This document shows, piece after piece, positions 25,007 to 48,074 of a stretch of DNA of 64,000 nucleotides. The number at the start of each line of letters is the position of its first letter. Positions within the stretch are counted from its first letter, which is position 1. The notes under the pieces are model-generated. The model was not told the origin of the DNA and searched no databases. It was given only the letters and a program-made list of their open reading frames with translations. Origin of the DNA: Nitrososphaerota archaeon (lineage in GTDB: Archaea > Thermoproteota > Nitrososphaeria > Nitrososphaerales > JACPRH01); assembly GCA_023379805.1 (NCBI GenBank), contig JAMCPI010000012.1, forward strand, positions 95,777-159,776. The letters run 5' to 3'. Made by a program: the position numbers and the translations under genes.

Positions 25007-25783
25007 CTAGCCAATATCGGCAAGTATTCCCCCGAGCTCCTCTGGAAAAATTCTTTCGAAGCCGGAGATATCCTCTCCTCCGCTAGTCAAGTTGAAGAGA
25101 GTCACCTCAGCTGTAGAAGCAAACCACTCTAGAAGATTTTTACCAATTCTTAACTTGGTGACCTTTACCTTCGGCGACGCTACCTGTGTCTTGGAGAACG
25201 GGCCCACGGTTTCGCCCATATCCATGCCCGCCAGCGCCAAAGGATCTCCTCCTAGGGCGCCGGCGAGGAAGACAGCTCGGTCGCCGTCGGTGAAACCTCC
25301 AAAGTTATGTACTCGACCAACAGGCTCGGTCTGCGTGGTTCCCAAGGCTTTGGAGAAGGTTTTGACGTAACGCTCCAGTTTAGGGATGTTGTCGCCGTGA
25401 GCATGCACCACAATATATGCACCTCTACGCTCTGCTTCTTGGATATCCTCAACCACTCCATCTAAATCAGTAACAACTATGTCCGGGACTTTACCCGCTA
25501 TCTTCAGCAGCGCGGTGGTGGCGCCGTCCGCCGAAATTAGGCAGCATCGGCTTAGAAGGGTGGTCTTCAGGATTCTCTTAAGATCGTTTTCAAGCGAAGG
25601 GCCTGCTCCGAAAATTAACGTGGGCCGCCCGTTGACACGTTGTCTAATATCTTTTAACGGCAACGCTCTATCTTTCAGTAAATCGTCAAGGATAATGGCT
25701 GCTCTCCTGTCTTCGTCCGGATCATATTTTAGTTCCTTCACGATTCTTCGGTACTTTGGCAGCCATTGATCCATTTCCATCAT
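25007..25783 (-). CDS. mptE: 6-hydroxymethyl-7,8-dihydropterin pyrophosphokinase, archaeal type (MptE, DUF115)
   Basis: 258 aa. LIFGAGPSL...ISADGATTALL...PDIVVTDLDG...VVHAHGDN is the MptE pattern. Confidence 0.75.
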   Translation of the reverse strand: MMEMDQWLPKYRRIVKELKYDPDEDRRAAIILDDLLKDRALPLKDIRQRVNGRPTLIFGAGPSLENDLKRILKTTLLSRCCLISADGATTALLKIAGKVPDIVVTDLDGVVEDIQEAERRGAYIVVHAHGDNIPKLERYVKTFSKALGTTQTEPVGRVHNFGGFTDGDRAVFLAGALGGDPLALAGMDMGETVGPFSKTQVASPKVKVTKLRIGKNLLEWFASTAEVTLFNLTSGGEDISGFERIFPEELGGILADIG

Positions 25784-25930
25784 ATCTCGCCCCTTTTGCA
25801 GCGATCTTTCGCCGCTGGTAAATAAGGCTTGACTAAAAAATTGACGATCTTGTCATCTCAGTTAGATCAACAGATAATTAATTTCAGATGCGCGATATCG
25901 AATCCGTCAGTCTGACGCTATGCAACAGGG

Positions 25931-26000
25931 GGTGGGATTGTGGCGGCCCGAGACAGGCTGGTCAGTATCTTCCCCACGGAGGCAGGAGCCACATGCCTGC
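25931..26000. ncRNA. Conserved structured intergenic element, copy 1 (unknown class)
   Basis: GGTGGGATTGTGGCGGC...GCTGGTCA...CCCCACGG..GCAGGAGCCACATGCCTGC shares three long identical blocks with 35210-35281. A hairpin shows one compensatory change. A 1-nt indel between the copies rules out a conserved peptide. Confidence 0.45.
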
Positions 26001-26142
26001 TTCCAGCACCCTTAACACTTTAATCGACCAACTTACTCTTCTTGGTAACTCACAAACTTCTCAGCTATTAATGGCGCGAGCATTTTTGCAGTAAAAGTTA
26101 CATTTCCCTTTATTATCTTAAGATTGATGCGGAGACGAGTTT

Positions 26143-26295
26143 ATGAACGAAGACTGGGTAGATGTTTGTGAGGTCTGTAATCTGCGCTTCCCCTGCAAGT
26201 CTGCGCTTCTACTGCACCGGAGATGGGAGCACGGCGAGGATGCAGAGCCTGAAAAGGCCACAGATAATGCGGAGCAAGAAGAGACCAAGCGGTAA
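26143..26295 (+). CDS. Small C2H2 zinc-finger protein (50 aa, below the ORF-track cutoff)
   Basis: Translates to MNEDWVDVCEVCNLRFPCKSALLLHRRWEHGEDAEPEKATDNAEQEETKR, giving C-x2-C-x12-H-x4-H. TATA-like TTTATTAT lies about 30 nt upstream of the ATG. Confidence 0.55.
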   Translation: MNEDWVDVCEVCNLRFPCKSALLLHRRWEHGEDAEPEKATDNAEQEETKR

Positions 26296-27605: not shown

Positions 27606-27624
27606 ACCTAGTGAGCAGCGCCCC

Positions 27625-27632
27625 TTTTTTTT
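27625..27632 (+). terminator. Oligo-T archaeal terminator candidate
   Basis: GCGCCCC followed by T8, 20 nt after the stop at 27605. Confidence 0.45.
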
Positions 27633-32805: not shown

Positions 32806-32880
32806 GGAGAGGTGGCGGAACGGTTACGCGTTCGCCTGCAGAGCGAATATACGTGGGTTCAACTCCCACCCTCTCCTCCA
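32806..32880 (+). tRNA. tRNA-Cys (GCA), CCA encoded
   Basis: Hand-folded cloverleaf. Acceptor GGAGAGG/CCTCTCC; anticodon stem TTCGC/GCGAA with loop CTGCAGA (anticodon GCA); T arm GTGGG-TTCAACT-CCCAC; discriminator T followed by CCA. Confidence 0.85.
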
Positions 32881-33003
32881 CACGACGCATAAGTGCTTTC
32901 TTCACAACATTGGGTAGTTGTTGAGAATTCTATGTGATTTATTGGTCGTATGGAGACCGTCTTACCCGTCTTTATATCTTGCCACTGTAAAATCGCAACG
33001 AAA

Positions 33004-35127
33004 ATGTTATCCGTAAAATATAGAATAAGCATCTTCGCACTGTTAACAATACTCGCGCTAGGCACATTCGCACCGACACTCGCACTCGCAGCACCTCTCG
33101 CCAACAACGGCAAAGACTGGGAATACGTAAACGGTAACTCTTGGGGCTGGAATTACAGTCCACAAACACAGATAAACAAGGATAATGTAAAGAATCTTGA
33201 AGTGAAATGGATCTTCCCTGTTGGAAGCAAGACACTTGCACCAGCAGCAATGCAAACGGTCGCTTTGACAGAGGGTGCACAAACACCACCAATTGTCAGA
33301 AACGGCATAGTCTACATCACAACCAACTTCCTCAAGACCTATGCCATAGACGGCAAGACCGGTAAACAGGTCTGGACATACGACTATACCTTCGATCCCA
33401 ATGCCACTGCTAGTAAGCTACCTTGGGTCTTCGGTATGCTCGGCTCACACCTGCACGGCTTCAGGTACTGGGAAGGCGGAAACGCACTGCTATTCAACGG
33501 AATGGCATGTGATGTTTATGCAGTAGACGCCTCGACCGGTAAGGAAGCATTCAGAATCCAGGATCTGTGCAAAGATGTTCCCGGAAACCTCTACAAGTAT
33601 AGACCAACACCAACAGATACATCGTCTATAGGAACATATGAGAAAGGCAAGCTGTTCATCACAGTCCTTCCAGGCATGATACACTCTAATATCTGGTATG
33701 GAGACGCACGCCACGTCACAATGGGTATCAACATGGATACCAAGCAAGTTGTGTGGAGAGTATTCAGCTTCCCACCGCACGGAGTACCTGCTAAAGACTG
33801 GGCTACTCAGGAATGCGACATTGGATACTTCGAATCTATTCCATGCAAAGACGTAGCGGCCAAGAACCCGAAGGGACTTGAATGGGACTGGGCAATGCCT
33901 GGTCAAGCACCAAGCCCCTACGGTGGTGTCACAGCTAACTGGGGCCAGCAAATAGTTGATGAAGATACAGGCATCATGTACACCAACACAGGTAACCAAG
34001 GACCTTTCACAAACCTCTCCCTAACACCTGGACCACGTCTATACGGCTCAACCATTATGGCTATTGACCTAACTCAGGGCAAGCGCATATGGTGGATGCA
34101 ACCATTCCCGCATGATCCGTATGACTATGACTGCAACTGGGGTGGAATACTAGCTGAAGTCAAGGGTCTGGGCAAGGTCTACATGAAGGGATGTAAGGAA
34201 GGCTTTCTTAACATCCTTGACGCAAGGACTGGTAAACCAATACAAAGGATAGACGTGACACAAGAACAGATGGCGCTCGGACAAGTAACTCAAGCAGCTG
34301 CTACAGAACCATATCAGGGCAAGGGCGGTGTCAGATACCACCTAACAGATCCAATGAGTGAATATGATCTCAGGGAATGGGGCTGGCCTGACAACGGCAA
34401 ATACGCTCCTTCACCATCAATACTCTACCCATCATATCTCAACGGAGTCTTCGCAACAGATCTATCATACGATCCTGACTCACAAACAGTAATCCACTAC
34501 GCAAACGCACTGATGATTGGATACAGGTCGCTTCCCATAGAAGTAGGAAAGAGCAACGTGGGTCCAGGACCTAAAGGAATGGCTGAGACTGCAAACACCA
34601 CTATTATTGCTCGTGACGTAGCTACCGGCAAAATCAAGTGGTCATGGTTCTACAAGACAAGTGCACAAAGAGCAGCTATAGTTGTAACCGGAGGAATGGT
34701 GTTCAGCGGCTTCACTGACGGAACAGTAAAGTTCCTAGACAAAGACAAGGGAACACTGCTAAACACCGTCAACGTAGGCTCAGGAGTAGTAGTAGCTCCA
34801 ACAATAGGTGCTGACTCTGACGGCAACCAGAAGATATTCCTCATAGCAGGGTCAACTAGCATCGTGGGCGCATTCGCAGGCCCAGGCTTCAACAACCTAG
34901 GCGCAATGGTACCAGGCACACTAGTAGCAGTAGGACTTAGCGAGAAGTCTACAGGCGGAGCAGTCACACAACCCACTACATCAACCACTACAACAACCAC
35001 CACAACAACCTCGATCCGCACCGTGGAAGTCTCATCAGGACTACCTGCAGAAGTAACCTACGCAGCAGTCGGAGTAGCAGTAATAGCAATCATCGGCGCA
35101 GCAGTACTCGTAATGCGGAAGAAGTAG
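33004..35127 (+). CDS. Exported PQQ-type eight-bladed beta-propeller dehydrogenase (methanol/ethanol family-like), Thr-linker + C-terminal TM anchor
   Basis: Signal peptide from ATG 33004 (MLSVKYRISIFALLTILALGTFAPTLALA). Repeated propeller motifs (TPPIVRNGIVYITT, AIDGKTGKQVW, AVDASTGKE, ARDVATGKIKW). T13 linker and a hydrophobic C-terminal helix ending in RKK. The vicinal Cys-Cys of classical MDH/ADH is not evident. Confidence 0.8.
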   Translation: MLSVKYRISIFALLTILALGTFAPTLALAAPLANNGKDWEYVNGNSWGWNYSPQTQINKDNVKNLEVKWIFPVGSKTLAPAAMQTVALTEGAQTPPIVRNGIVYITTNFLKTYAIDGKTGKQVWTYDYTFDPNATASKLPWVFGMLGSHLHGFRYWEGGNALLFNGMACDVYAVDASTGKEAFRIQDLCKDVPGNLYKYRPTPTDTSSIGTYEKGKLFITVLPGMIHSNIWYGDARHVTMGINMDTKQVVWRVFSFPPHGVPAKDWATQECDIGYFESIPCKDVAAKNPKGLEWDWAMPGQAPSPYGGVTANWGQQIVDEDTGIMYTNTGNQGPFTNLSLTPGPRLYGSTIMAIDLTQGKRIWWMQPFPHDPYDYDCNWGGILAEVKGLGKVYMKGCKEGFLNILDARTGKPIQRIDVTQEQMALGQVTQAAATEPYQGKGGVRYHLTDPMSEYDLREWGWPDNGKYAPSPSILYPSYLNGVFATDLSYDPDSQTVIHYANALMIGYRSLPIEVGKSNVGPGPKGMAETANTTIIARDVATGKIKWSWFYKTSAQRAAIVVTGGMVFSGFTDGTVKFLDKDKGTLLNTVNVGSGVVVAPTIGADSDGNQKIFLIAGSTSIVGAFAGPGFNNLGAMVPGTLVAVGLSEKSTGGAVTQPTTSTTTTTTTTTSIRTVEVSSGLPAEVTYAAVGVAVIAIIGAAVLVMRKK

Positions 35128-35137
35128 AAGAGGACTC

Positions 35138-35171
35138 GGCGACCAATGTGGTCGCCAACCACCCTTTTTTT
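35138..35171 (+). terminator. Hairpin + T7 terminator candidate
   Basis: GGCGACC-aatgt-GGTCGCC is a perfect 7-bp stem, followed 8 nt later by T7 (35165-35171). It lies 11 nt after the dehydrogenase stop. Confidence 0.6.
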
Positions 35172-35209
35172 GAAGGGAAATTACGCTCCACGGCTCAAAA
35201 TACCGTGTA

Positions 35210-35281
35210 GGTGGGATTGTGGCGGCTCAGGGTGACAAGCTGGTCATTTTTTCCCCACGGGTGCAGGAGCCACATGCCTGC
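35210..35281. ncRNA. Conserved structured intergenic element, copy 2 (unknown class)
   Basis: Shares the same three identical blocks with 25931-26000. Lies immediately downstream of the terminator-like hairpin/T7. Confidence 0.45.
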
Positions 35282-35629
35282 ACCCAAATTCCCAACTACC
35301 CCTCAGTTATTCATTTCACTGAATTGACTGCTTATTCTTGGTTCTTATCTCGTAAGTTAGTGACAGAACACTTGGGAACTGTTGTAAGGTTAGTGGATAA
35401 CTGATATCAGATCTGAGTCTAAACTGGAAAGAGTATAACTGCAGTCGAGGCGTTTTTCAGGTTTTTACTTTCCTAAAATAGGCATGATTCATCCATAAAT
35501 TACGCGAACAATACATGGATAATTGGTCTATTGTGTTGATACTCTCTGTTCTGCTGGAAATAGATAATTTTGCTATATTTTCATGCTTCATAAATACAGT
35601 TTTTCAAATAGACTGCTCCCGTATGCACC

Positions 35630-37570
35630 TTGGACTTCCCATCATTCAAAGGCAATCACCTTAGTGTCCAGACGATATCGTTGTTAATTATTATCGTGGG
35701 GTCGATTTTCTCAGGAAATATCCTCACGGCCGCATCAGTGCAACCCGCCTCGGATAATGCAGGTCCCAAAAGTTTTGTCCGCGCGTCTCAGGTTGAGGGC
35801 GGCGATGCAAAGATAGGTTCACAAATTAAGAACCACTTGAAGAGCGGTGCTCTGGATAATATCTCGGTTGTAATGAATCTTAGAGGCGAGTATGCTCACT
35901 TGTCCAGCGTCTTGAAGCGGCTTGGTTTTACGGTTGAGCGCGCTCAGGGAACTACTGTTCAGGGACATGTTAAAGCCAATGACTTGGCGCGACTAGCCTC
36001 TTTGAGATTCGTTGACTCTATTCGTGAGCCTGCTAAACCGATTTTCGCCAGCGTCGAAAGTGAAGGAGTCGATGTATTAAAGGCCAACATAGCTCACAGT
36101 ATAGGTCAAACCGGAAAAGGTGTGAAGGTCGCAGTGATCGACGGCGGCTTCGACGTTAACAACCCCAAGATCGCATCGAAAATTGTGGAAGCAAAGTCAT
36201 TCATAAACGGTAAAGATGTGTCCGGTGACTATTCTCACCACGGTACCGCCTGCGCCGAAATAGTTGTGGATGTTGCTCCAGATGTCCAGCTCTACCTTTA
36301 CGCTGTTCGCACTGATTTAGACTTTGTCGCCGCAGTTAACCGCGCAGTAAGCAAGCACGTCAATATCATCTCCACCTCTCTTAGCTTCGCAAACCTTGGC
36401 CCATACGATGGAAGCAGCGACACGTCAAAGGCCTTGGAAAACGCCAGAAAAGCAGGAGTCCTACCGATCGTAGCGGCAAGCAACATGGCTCAGGTACATT
36501 GGAGCGGCACCTTCCAAGACCCCGACTCAAATAACTGGGTGAACTTCGACGGCACAGACGAGACTAACACCTTCCACCTAGACCAAAACAACAAGGTAAC
36601 CGTTTACCTAAGCTGGAACAGATGGTGGCAAACTAATCAAGACTACGACCTATACCTGTACCGAGCAGTTGACGGTAACCTCACCGAAGTATCCAGATCC
36701 ACCAACCGGCAAAACGGTAACTACTGGCCAACAGAAGAGGTCGACTACACCGCTACTGTAAGCGGGCAATACGCTATCAAGATAATTAAAGTGAACGCAG
36801 ACGGCAAAGCCAAATTCGACATGTTCGCCTACGGAGCATCACCGCTAAAGTATCGTAACGAAACAGGAAGTCTAATGAACATCGCCGACGCTAAAGGCGC
36901 AATATCTGTTGGTGCCCTATACTGGAAGACCAATGCGTTGGAACCCTTCAGCTCAAGAGGCCCCACGGCGGATGGGCGGATTAAACCCGACATTATGGGC
37001 CCAGACGGCGTCACAACAACCGGATACACCCCGTTCTTCGGCACCTCAGCAGCTGCTCCACACATTGCTGGACTAGCTGCTTTGATAGCTGGCTCCAACC
37101 CTTCATTGACTGCGGATGAGATTGAAGCAATTCTGGAGAATACAACCACGCATCTAGGTGCAGCTGGGAAAAACGGTGTGTACGGCTATGGTCAAGCTGG
37201 AGCAAGATACGTAACCTTAGATGTCTCACCCAGAACTGTTCCACTGATAGTTGATGGTAACGAACTGTCCCCAACACTACTCCCAAGAAAAATACTTGTA
37301 GACGGAATGCCTCGCAACGTATCCCTACCAATAACTTCAACAGGAACGAACAATACCCGTTACATCTTCAAACAGTGGAGTAGCGGAAACAAATCTCAAA
37401 CAATAACGCTTCGCTTCGACGGGAGAAGGCTGAACGAAACAGCCCAGTTCGCAGCAGAAAATAATAACGAAAACTCAACAAAGGGTGCACCACAGGGAAT
37501 CTGGTACAACCCGAATACGGGTACCTCTCTCTCAAGCTTGCCTACAACCAATAATCAGGACGGCACGTAG
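35630..37570 (+). CDS. Secreted subtilisin-like serine protease (peptidase S8)
   Basis: 646 aa with a TTG start and a signal peptide. Catalytic triad motifs VAVIDGGFD, HGTACAE and GTSAAAPHIAG. Confidence 0.9.
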   Translation: MDFPSFKGNHLSVQTISLLIIIVGSIFSGNILTAASVQPASDNAGPKSFVRASQVEGGDAKIGSQIKNHLKSGALDNISVVMNLRGEYAHLSSVLKRLGFTVERAQGTTVQGHVKANDLARLASLRFVDSIREPAKPIFASVESEGVDVLKANIAHSIGQTGKGVKVAVIDGGFDVNNPKIASKIVEAKSFINGKDVSGDYSHHGTACAEIVVDVAPDVQLYLYAVRTDLDFVAAVNRAVSKHVNIISTSLSFANLGPYDGSSDTSKALENARKAGVLPIVAASNMAQVHWSGTFQDPDSNNWVNFDGTDETNTFHLDQNNKVTVYLSWNRWWQTNQDYDLYLYRAVDGNLTEVSRSTNRQNGNYWPTEEVDYTATVSGQYAIKIIKVNADGKAKFDMFAYGASPLKYRNETGSLMNIADAKGAISVGALYWKTNALEPFSSRGPTADGRIKPDIMGPDGVTTTGYTPFFGTSAAAPHIAGLAALIAGSNPSLTADEIEAILENTTTHLGAAGKNGVYGYGQAGARYVTLDVSPRTVPLIVDGNELSPTLLPRKILVDGMPRNVSLPITSTGTNNTRYIFKQWSSGNKSQTITLRFDGRRLNETAQFAAENNNENSTKGAPQGIWYNPNTGTSLSSLPTTNNQDGT

Positions 37571-47568: not shown

Positions 47569-48074
47569 TCCTACTGGGTTCTTCCCTTTTTGTTTTACCG
47601 GTTAGGCGCGTATAACAATGATGTCTCCCACATATTCTTCTCCGCTTCATCTGTTTAAGGAAGCTACAGATGTCTCTAAGCGTAGCAATCTTGAAATAAC
47701 AGAATCTTGACAGCGCTGATCAAGTGAACATAACATGTGCACAACATCACACAGCGAGAAAAAACATCTCAAAAAAGACGTAACGACAACAATCGTCTAT
47801 AGAGGGATGCCAACCAAACAGACTCCTGAATATGTGGTTGCAGAGTTCAGACGCGCATCGCATATAGCAAGCGCTCGAACAAGTTAGTCGGCTAGTTAGG
47901 AAACTAACTGTCTAACAACTACTTCTGTCAACCTAGTAAGAGATTGTTTGGCGTGTCCGAGTGAATTGGTGACTAGGGCGGTACCGTAATATTGTTGTTC
48001 TCCGCCCTCACCGTTACCCTCGGCTTCTGAGAAGAGAATTAACGAACACGTTTTCACGATTATTCTAACTTTAT

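Follow-up and report, generated by a model that had tools for sequence, protein, structure and literature searches.

What is the short sequence that occurs twice, in closely similar form, between the genes of a 64,000-nucleotide stretch of thaumarchaeal DNA (contig JAMCPI010000012.1, Nitrososphaerota; hereafter the window)? Both copies lie on the + strand, copy 1 at 25931..26011 and copy 2 at 35210..35292, and a sequence-only reading had proposed that they encode a structured RNA. The comparative analysis supports this proposal, as further copies exist in other genomes and their helices are retained by compensatory changes. The element is very probably a functional structured RNA of some kind, read from the + strand, and represents a new family within a known kind, the structured small RNAs. 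Concerning its mode of action, sequence comparison makes it modestly probable that the element is an independently transcribed small RNA (sRNA) of ~85-110 nt, with action in trans and additional copies in particular lineages.

The two window copies share long exact blocks. The 17-mer GGTGGGATTGTGGCGGC is found on the + strand only at 25931-25947 and 35210-35226, and none of 100 shuffles contained two or more matches to it. The 19-mer GCAGGAGCCACATGCCTGC is found, also on the + strand, only at 25982-26000 and 35263-35281 and had no match in any shuffle. The segments GCTGGTCA and CCCCACGG are likewise common to both copies, and the spacers in the alignment measure 9 versus 12 nt and 7 versus 6 nt. 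The replacement of CGGCC/GGCTG by CGGCT/AGCTG is compensatory, as had been claimed. A stem around a 9-nt loop is also present on the 3' side; the pairing GCAGG/CCTGC first put forward for it is too short, and the stem really comprises 9 bp, GGAGGCAGG/CCTGCTTCC in copy 1 and GGGTGCAGG/CCTGCACCC in copy 2. This longer stem adds two compensated positions between the window copies (A-U to G-C, and G-U to U-A). When the window was scanned with a covariance model, exactly two copies were returned, at 101 and 96 bits, and the next best match reached 11 bits.

Copy 1, the syntenic or c1-type copy, consists of a 5' hairpin, a 3' hairpin and a C-rich tail and scores 101.4 bits with the covariance model. 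The 5' hairpin (25932..25977) was defined by minimum free energy (MFE) folding together with covariation. In its helix P1, GUGGG(A) at 25932-25937 pairs with CCCCAC at 25972-25977, and in its helix P2, UGGCGGCC at 25941-25948 pairs with GGCU-G-GUCA at 25956-25964; the hairpin also contains a variable loop (25949-25955) and a U-rich internal loop (25965-25971). The 3' hairpin P3 (25978..26004) has 9 bp, formed by 25978-25986 and 25996-26004, and carries the loop AGCCACAUG at 25987-25995. Alignments place the C/A-rich tail AGCACCC, described as G-free, at 26005..26011. In most orthologues the tail reads AACUCCCC and is followed by a U-run; copy 1 of the window is without a clear U-run. Copy 2, a paralogous copy, scores 96.2 bits, and its P1 starts 84 nt past the stop codon of a gene for a pyrroloquinoline quinone (PQQ)-propeller protein. 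Its 5' hairpin (35211..35258) is made up of P1 (35211-35216 with 35253-35258), P2 (35220-35227 with 35238-35246) and the loop 35228-35237, and its P3 (35259..35285) pairs GGGUGCAGG with CCUGCACCC around the loop AGCCACAUG at 35268-35276. An extra 5' hairpin, P0, is formed by CACGG at 35189-35193 and CCGUG at 35203-35207 and abuts P1. Hairpins of differing sequence occupy the P0 position in L008, L014, L020a, L020b and L148, and P0 is absent or vestigial in c1-type copies.

Altogether, 18 distinct copies and one decayed copy came from at least 11 genomes or metagenome populations of Thaumarchaeota, and each of the 18 scores 72-104 bits under a single covariance model. The syntenic copy lies between an MptE-like gene (- strand) and the deoxyhypusine synthase (DHS) gene (+ strand) wherever this gene pair is retained. 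Orthologous intergenic regions obtained via DHS homologues carry the element in L001, L004 (L004/5/6), L141, L142, L144 and L145; with L009, where an orthologue of copy 1 likewise occupies this position, and the window, there are eight sites. No copy was present within 10 kb in L143 and L146, loci with a DHS protein 65-67% identical and a different synteny, and the family apparently does not extend beyond the clade that has retained the MptE-DHS gene pair. An exact-pattern scan of species-representative genomes yielded three copies in the metagenome-assembled genome (MAG) XS84Bin3, three in the groundwater MAG JACPRH01 and one in a marine MAG, and a fourth JACPRH01 copy turned up nearby. The same scan gave seven bacterial chance matches, near the expected number. 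Loci collected through homologues of the PQQ protein added copies in JACPRH01 (L147), JAMCWH01 (L148) and JAIYTM01 (L149), as well as the decayed copy.

Copy number varies among genomes, with at least five copies in JACPRH01 (L009, L011, L020 twice, and L147), three in XS84Bin3 and two in the window. Extra copies number up to five per genome, and the pattern search also revealed genomes with the syntenic copy alone. Several conserved copies at unlinked intergenic sites are the pattern expected of sibling sRNAs. As a negative control, 577 kb of unrelated contigs, many of them matching the pattern in part, gave no match beyond L022, L031 and L114, the sequences of which are already among the 18 copies. 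A metagenome scan with GGCGGC..GCTGGTCA..TCCCCAC was too loose, with three real copies among the 120 matches listed and GC-rich bacterial chance matches for the rest, and a scan of viral contigs gave 0 matches. The decayed copy (L149 10239-10350) reaches 11 bits, has lost the P3 pairing and follows another PQQ gene; it shows that copies of the element are gained and lost.

Conservation of the element is pronounced and local. Across the eight orthologous sites it is ~80% identical, versus 34-39% for the flanking intergenic DNA; the neighbouring DHS protein is only 70-79% identical, and 95% identical for the closest matches. Paralogous copies keep the core as well, next to PQQ proteins that are 41-56% identical and with spacers and P0 hairpins that differ from copy to copy. 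The P3 loop AGCCACAUG (A-GCCACA-UG) is invariant in 18/18 copies. As far as sequence comparison can tell, the family is restricted to a clade of non-ammonia-oxidising Thaumarchaeota that comprises kin of the heterotrophic marine group and their groundwater and terrestrial relatives.

Covariation was computed on the alignment of 18 sequences, with 500 shuffles and slid partners as controls. In P3, both-sided changes are seen in 7/9 pairs and 95.7% of cells are paired. In upper P2, both-sided changes are seen in 2/4 pairs (C-G/U-A/U-G and G-C/A-U). The GTGGG/CCCAC pairing of the sequence-only reading corresponds to the closing helix P1 (GUGGG/CCCAC), which is nearly invariant, with one G-U change and an A-U pair in L141 where most copies have G-C. 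By these counts P3 is strongly supported, upper P2 is supported and P1 is weakly supported. Over all helices, 95.8% of cells are paired, versus 31-51% with slid partners. The observed covariation was reached by 0/500 shuffles, a control that overstates significance because the sequences are related and can beat it without any real structure; more weight belongs to the slid control and to the count of compensated pairs.

Two G-U pairs, those of columns 22-44 and 24-41, show no change in 18/18 copies, and further G-U variants occur in P3. The + strand is the functional one, because these pairs would be C.A mismatches on the opposite strand. The fold of the - strand is no better than that of shuffles. 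Compensatory substitutions keep the helices in a strand-specific manner, as is general for structured RNAs.

The UUGUGGC segment has three candidate pairings. It may form the lower part of P2, an alternative register returned by RNAalifold in which the variable base becomes a bulge, or a pseudoknot with the P3 loop; each option leaves 96-98% of cells paired with zero compensated pairs, and the register of lower P2 is ambiguous. The sequence statement behind the pseudoknot, namely the complementarity between TGTGGC and the GCCACA of the 9-nt loop, holds. The exact complement UGUGGC lies 45-50 nt upstream of the P3 loop in all copies save L001 and L145, and a 6-nt match of a 9-nt loop to the remainder of the element was estimated to arise by chance with a probability of ~0.06. 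For UGUGGC:GCCACA, 98.1% of cells are paired, 4/6 pairs never vary, there is one U.G wobble, and the 12 positions are almost invariant. A T-to-C change in L001 and L145 creates an uncompensated C.A mismatch for lower P2 and for the pseudoknot alike, and column 45 (C, U or A) is mismatched in L147 under both nested options. RNAalifold on the eight orthologues found no closing helix between the flanks, where pairings seen in single copies are not conserved.

Kissing-loop and loop-receptor pseudoknots can form where a hairpin loop of 9 nt offers a complementary core of 6 nt, as in the loop geometry of the HIV-1 dimerization initiation site (DIS). The P3 loop A-GCCACA-UG has the same layout, with a 6-nt core flanked by one and two unpaired bases. 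Unlike kissing of the HIV-1 DIS type, the pairing in the element is predicted only, shows no covariation, has a C.A mismatch in the middle of the helix in two copies and competes with the base of P2.

The element matches no known RNA family, as the sequence-only reading had stated. Rfam 15, with 4227 covariance models, was run on the whole window at the gathering threshold and on slices of 401 and 221 nt around the copies at E<=10; the slices gave chance matches of 10-21 bits only, none of which meaningfully covers the element. ARAGORN and RF00005 find no tRNA at either copy. Candidate classes were also compared directly. An archaeal C/D-box sRNA does not fit, with both UGAUGA and CUGA absent from the + strand of the element. 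For an archaeal H/ACA sRNA, P1 is followed by GG and then P3, with no conserved ACA 3' of the hairpins and no GA/AG tandem. Kink-turn (K-turn), sarcin-ricin and hepatitis delta virus (HDV)-like topologies were rejected by eye, the boxes or the strand order being absent.

Neither Rfam 15 nor the searched full-text literature, which included the papers on heterotrophic marine Thaumarchaeota and a metatranscriptome paper, contains a description of the element. To our knowledge, few structured non-coding RNAs are known from Thaumarchaeota at all. According to the same searches, none was previously known from the uncultured heterotrophic lineages, which the deep ocean and groundwater harbour in abundance. 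The family is among the most conserved non-coding sequences of these genomes and has a clean comparative signature. Its position beside PQQ dehydrogenases, enzymes presumed central to energy metabolism, is non-random, and it provides a concrete point from which to test gene regulation or RNA-protein biology in organisms that so far resist cultivation. Its 18-sequence alignment and its covariance model make it a ready candidate for Rfam.

If the element is an sRNA, its fold would comprise the long irregular 5' hairpin, in which P1 closes the U-rich internal loop and the G-U-containing upper helix P2. The 9-bp P3 would follow directly and display the invariant loop A-GCCACA-UG, and the C-rich, G-free tail, usually with its U-run, would come last; P3 and the tail probably also terminate transcription. 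The MptE-DHS intergenic copy would be ancestral, and the extra copies would have arisen by duplication, in the groundwater lineage along with the conserved 3' ends of the PQQ-dehydrogenase genes. We infer that the RNA has its own transcription, not that of an untranslated region (UTR), and that it regulates in trans, bound to a protein or by base pairing, in the style of sibling sRNAs. The near-invariant loops could serve as a recognition surface, in which the P3 loop either docks on UGUGGC in the 5' hairpin or pairs with a target. Any functional connection with the expression of PQQ dehydrogenases is a guess from position only.

The genomic settings speak for a gene of its own. Copy 1 and its seven orthologues have no upstream gene on the same strand, in L011 and L020b the gene after the copy is encoded on the opposite strand, and the copies of XS84Bin3 occur in unrelated contexts, next to thermosome and kinase genes and to methyltransferase and alcohol dehydrogenase genes. 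Upstream genes end in their own hairpin, CCC and T-run before the element. The motif ATTA-N-GCT(T/A) is found 9-38 nt upstream of P1 in 17/18 copies, that is, in all copies for which upstream sequence is available; in the window, comparison of upstream sequences gives the local forms TGACGCTAT at 25913..25921 for copy 1 and ATTACGCT at 35180-35187 for copy 2, both on the + strand. This motif may mark the 5' end of the RNA or the region of its start site. An independent sRNA gene is favoured because of the lack of a same-strand upstream gene, the promoter-like motif ahead of the next gene, the upstream terminators, the convergent genes and the unrelated functions downstream.

In most paralogous copies the interval between the ATTA-N-GCT(T/A) motif and P1 holds the hairpin P0, variable in sequence and with the base CUU…AAG, of which c1-type copies retain the base only. 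A second, promoter-like motif, AAA(G/T)GTTTACAT, lies between the element and the next gene in 8/8 syntenic copies. In the window it is found at 26091-26103, is similar to a TATA box with its transcription factor B recognition element (BRE/TATA-like), and precedes a zinc-finger open reading frame (ORF) and the DHS gene. The motif resembles AAAGTTTATATA, which precedes PQQ genes. As it stands downstream of the element, the element probably is outside the 5' UTR of DHS.

Multi-copy sibling sRNAs with a terminator hairpin and a C-rich motif include bacterial examples of the Qrr, LhrC and RsaE type, and trans-acting sRNAs are known in the archaea Methanosarcina and Haloferax. The element resembles them in being a short intergenic gene with several near-identical copies per genome at unrelated sites, a near-invariant core and a 3' hairpin with U-run, and its unpaired, G-free and C-rich stretch could pair with G-rich ribosome-binding regions. 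It differs in having no sequence or structural homology to them, in its archaeal host and in the lack of target complementarity in the window. Moreover, almost the whole element is conserved and not a seed alone, which points to protein or tertiary contacts.

Besides the leniency of the shuffle control, several further points weigh against a trans-acting sRNA. The MFE z-scores against shuffles are unexceptional (-0.95 and -1.40). Complements of the P3 loop or the tail are not enriched in the window, and a TATA-like box at constant distance upstream of the copies was not found. The sampled clade is shallow, and variation is scant in P1, lower P2 and all loops; much of the fold therefore rests on conservation and not on covariation. 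Gene conversion among the 3' modules of PQQ genes could inflate the similarity of paralogous copies. Finally, 7/7 extra copies of the groundwater type (window copy 2, L011, L020a, L020b, L147, L148 and L149) lie 80-250 nt downstream of a co-oriented PQQ gene, a position that fits a role in cis or a read-through transcript as well as a gene of its own.

This last observation carries the explanation that survives best after an sRNA gene: a cis-acting 3'-end element of the upstream mRNA, reached by read-through of a leaky PQQ terminator and serving as a stabiliser, a processing mark or the source of a 3'-UTR-derived sRNA. The decayed copy likewise follows a PQQ gene. We consider this explanation unlikely, if still deserving of attention. 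The most widespread copy, the c1-type of eight genomes, has no upstream gene on the same strand, its MptE-like neighbour being divergent, and the three XS84Bin3 copies do not adjoin PQQ genes. Each PQQ stop codon is separated from the element by a terminator of hairpin, CCC and T-run, and in the tandem PQQ arrays the element follows only 1/6, 1/3 and 1 (plus 1 decayed)/5 genes. The PQQ association may stem from duplication or gene conversion through the near-identical 3' ends of PQQ genes.

In the window, the terminator-like hairpin in question is GGCGACC-AATG-TGGTCGCC followed by AACCACCC and T7 (35140..35171, + strand), at the end of the PQQ gene before copy 2; it is context and no part of the RNA. 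Gene ends here often show a hairpin, CCC(C) and a T-run (window 27621-27632, 35162-35171 and 47584-47591), which looks like a lineage-typical termination signal in this archaeon. P3 and the tail of the element share this layout, P3 with AACUCCCC and a U-run comparing with GACGAUCC..GGAUCGUC plus UCCUCCC and U5-7 after PQQ genes. Unlike the terminators of the lineage, the element has a P3 loop that is invariant in 18 copies and a conserved 5' hairpin that always precedes P3, and for these reasons it is more than a terminator.

Every PQQ-propeller paralogue (window 35100-35171; L147, L148, L149, L011 and L020) ends near-identically in …GCAGCAGCAGTACTAGTAATGCGAAAGAAGTAG, which encodes AAAVLVMRKK*. 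The hairpin GACGATCC-N3-6-GGATCGTC follows 10-25 nt on, then TCCTCCC(A) and T5-7; in the window, the hairpin (35140-35158) is a variant of it. Possible readings of this conserved 3' module are a shared terminator, a trace of gene conversion and an RNA signal.

A slim chance is left to a new, compact and pseudoknotted RNA class that is ligand-sensing, protein-sensing or catalytic, in which the near-invariant loops would make up a tertiary core with the P3 loop docked on UGUGGC, and which would be coupled mechanistically to the PQQ-dehydrogenase system as the presumed energy supply of these heterotrophs. Such an RNA might, for example, sense a cofactor, a metal or the redox state and set the expression of the paralogues, and would be no ordinary base-pairing sRNA.

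A riboswitch or other cis-regulator in a 5' UTR has a slimmer chance. Invariant junctions and loops would then form a ligand pocket, and the pseudoknot and lower P2 would be the two states of the switch. The combination of invariant unpaired nucleotides with covarying stems is indeed aptamer-like, and UGUGGC has two mutually exclusive pairings. However, the genes downstream are unrelated (the zinc-finger ORF and DHS, a subtilase, a kinase, an alcohol dehydrogenase, a hemerythrin gene and another PQQ gene), for several copies the next gene is convergent, the promoter-like motif stands between c1-type copies and the next gene, and there is no conserved expression platform.

It is highly improbable that the element is a repeat at the DNA level, either a protein-binding or recombination site, such as the attC-like end of a cassette, or a passenger of gene conversion at PQQ 3' ends. 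Long invariant blocks of 17-19 nt are typical for binding sites, and the element lies 3' of members of a gene family that have near-identical DNA at their own 3' ends. Yet its helices are kept by compensatory changes, with G-U but not A-C tolerated on one strand only. It is also kept at a syntenic core-gene site in genomes in which the pattern search finds a single copy, and the adjoining spacers have diverged and the core has not. Integron attC sites are comparable in being structured repeats of ~60-130 nt that follow certain genes of an array immediately and in the same orientation. In contrast to attC, which conserves structure only, the element conserves sequence, and its strand-specific G-U pairs argue for RNA. 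The attC assignment was rejected, given that only a minority of tandem PQQ genes have the element, that no integrase is among the called genes of the fetched loci and that one copy is syntenic in the core genome.

A small peptide can be dismissed: ORFs of 68 and 61 aa (25888..26094 and 35219..35404) do overlap the copies and the P3 loop holds an invariant AUG, but spacers that differ by 1-3 nt among copies place the conserved blocks in different frames, ORFs from the loop AUG run from 7 to >30 codons, substitutions are pairwise-compensatory and not synonymous, there is no Pfam match and no gene called over the element in any fetched locus, and the loss of frame through loop differences that are not multiples of three, together with a TGA inside P3 of L004, excludes a conserved peptide, as the sequence-only reading had concluded. 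The element is independent of the reading frames around it.

The surroundings of the two copies also characterize the host. By Pfam, the neighbours in the window include an MptE-like kinase, DHS, an H+-pyrophosphatase, an archaeal PEP carboxylase, methanopterin-related genes and the PQQ-propeller protein. In a protein homology search, the DHS homologues carry Nitrososphaerales or Thaumarchaeota names, and the PQQ-propeller protein is 100% identical to one in a Thaumarchaeota MAG. Judged by this gene set and the DHS homologues, the host is a non-ammonia-oxidising thaumarchaeon. The marine relatives that bear the element fall within the heterotrophic marine group, for which numerous and highly expressed PQQ dehydrogenases have been described (PMC7300363; PMC13374868).

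Upstream of copy 1 and divergent from it lies the MptE-like gene (25007-25783, - strand). Between copy 1 and the DHS gene, a 50-aa ORF (26143-26295, + strand) carries a C2H2 zinc-finger signature (CxxC…HxxxxH) with weak Pfam zf-C2H2 matches; L001 keeps this ORF, and L145 has a called gene of 53 aa in the corresponding position. Copy 2 is preceded by the PQQ-propeller gene (32950-35127, + strand; Pfam) and followed at ~340 nt by a subtilase gene (35630-37570; Pfam). A tRNA-Cys(GCA) gene (32806-32880; Rfam match 32806-32877) lies just upstream of the PQQ-propeller gene and is the sole match of Rfam, at the gathering threshold, or of ARAGORN across the whole window.

In L009 (MAG JACPRH01), a TnpB-like gene with a Cas12f1-like TNB domain (E = 2e-20; 1327-2511) is inserted between the element and DHS; the insertion is absent from the window and the remaining orthologous loci. 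Tandem arrays of 3-6 PQQ-propeller genes occur at L147 1-14525, L148 9292-16493 and L149 335-12793, in which each gene apparently has its own AAAGTTTATATA-type promoter. Lastly, a conserved block, TTGAC-N-TTGTCAC-N-GTTAGA(GAA)-N-(G)TAAT(A/T)AAT, separates the element from the MptE-like gene at 8/8 orthologous loci (window ~25828-25885) and may be a bidirectional promoter or an operator.

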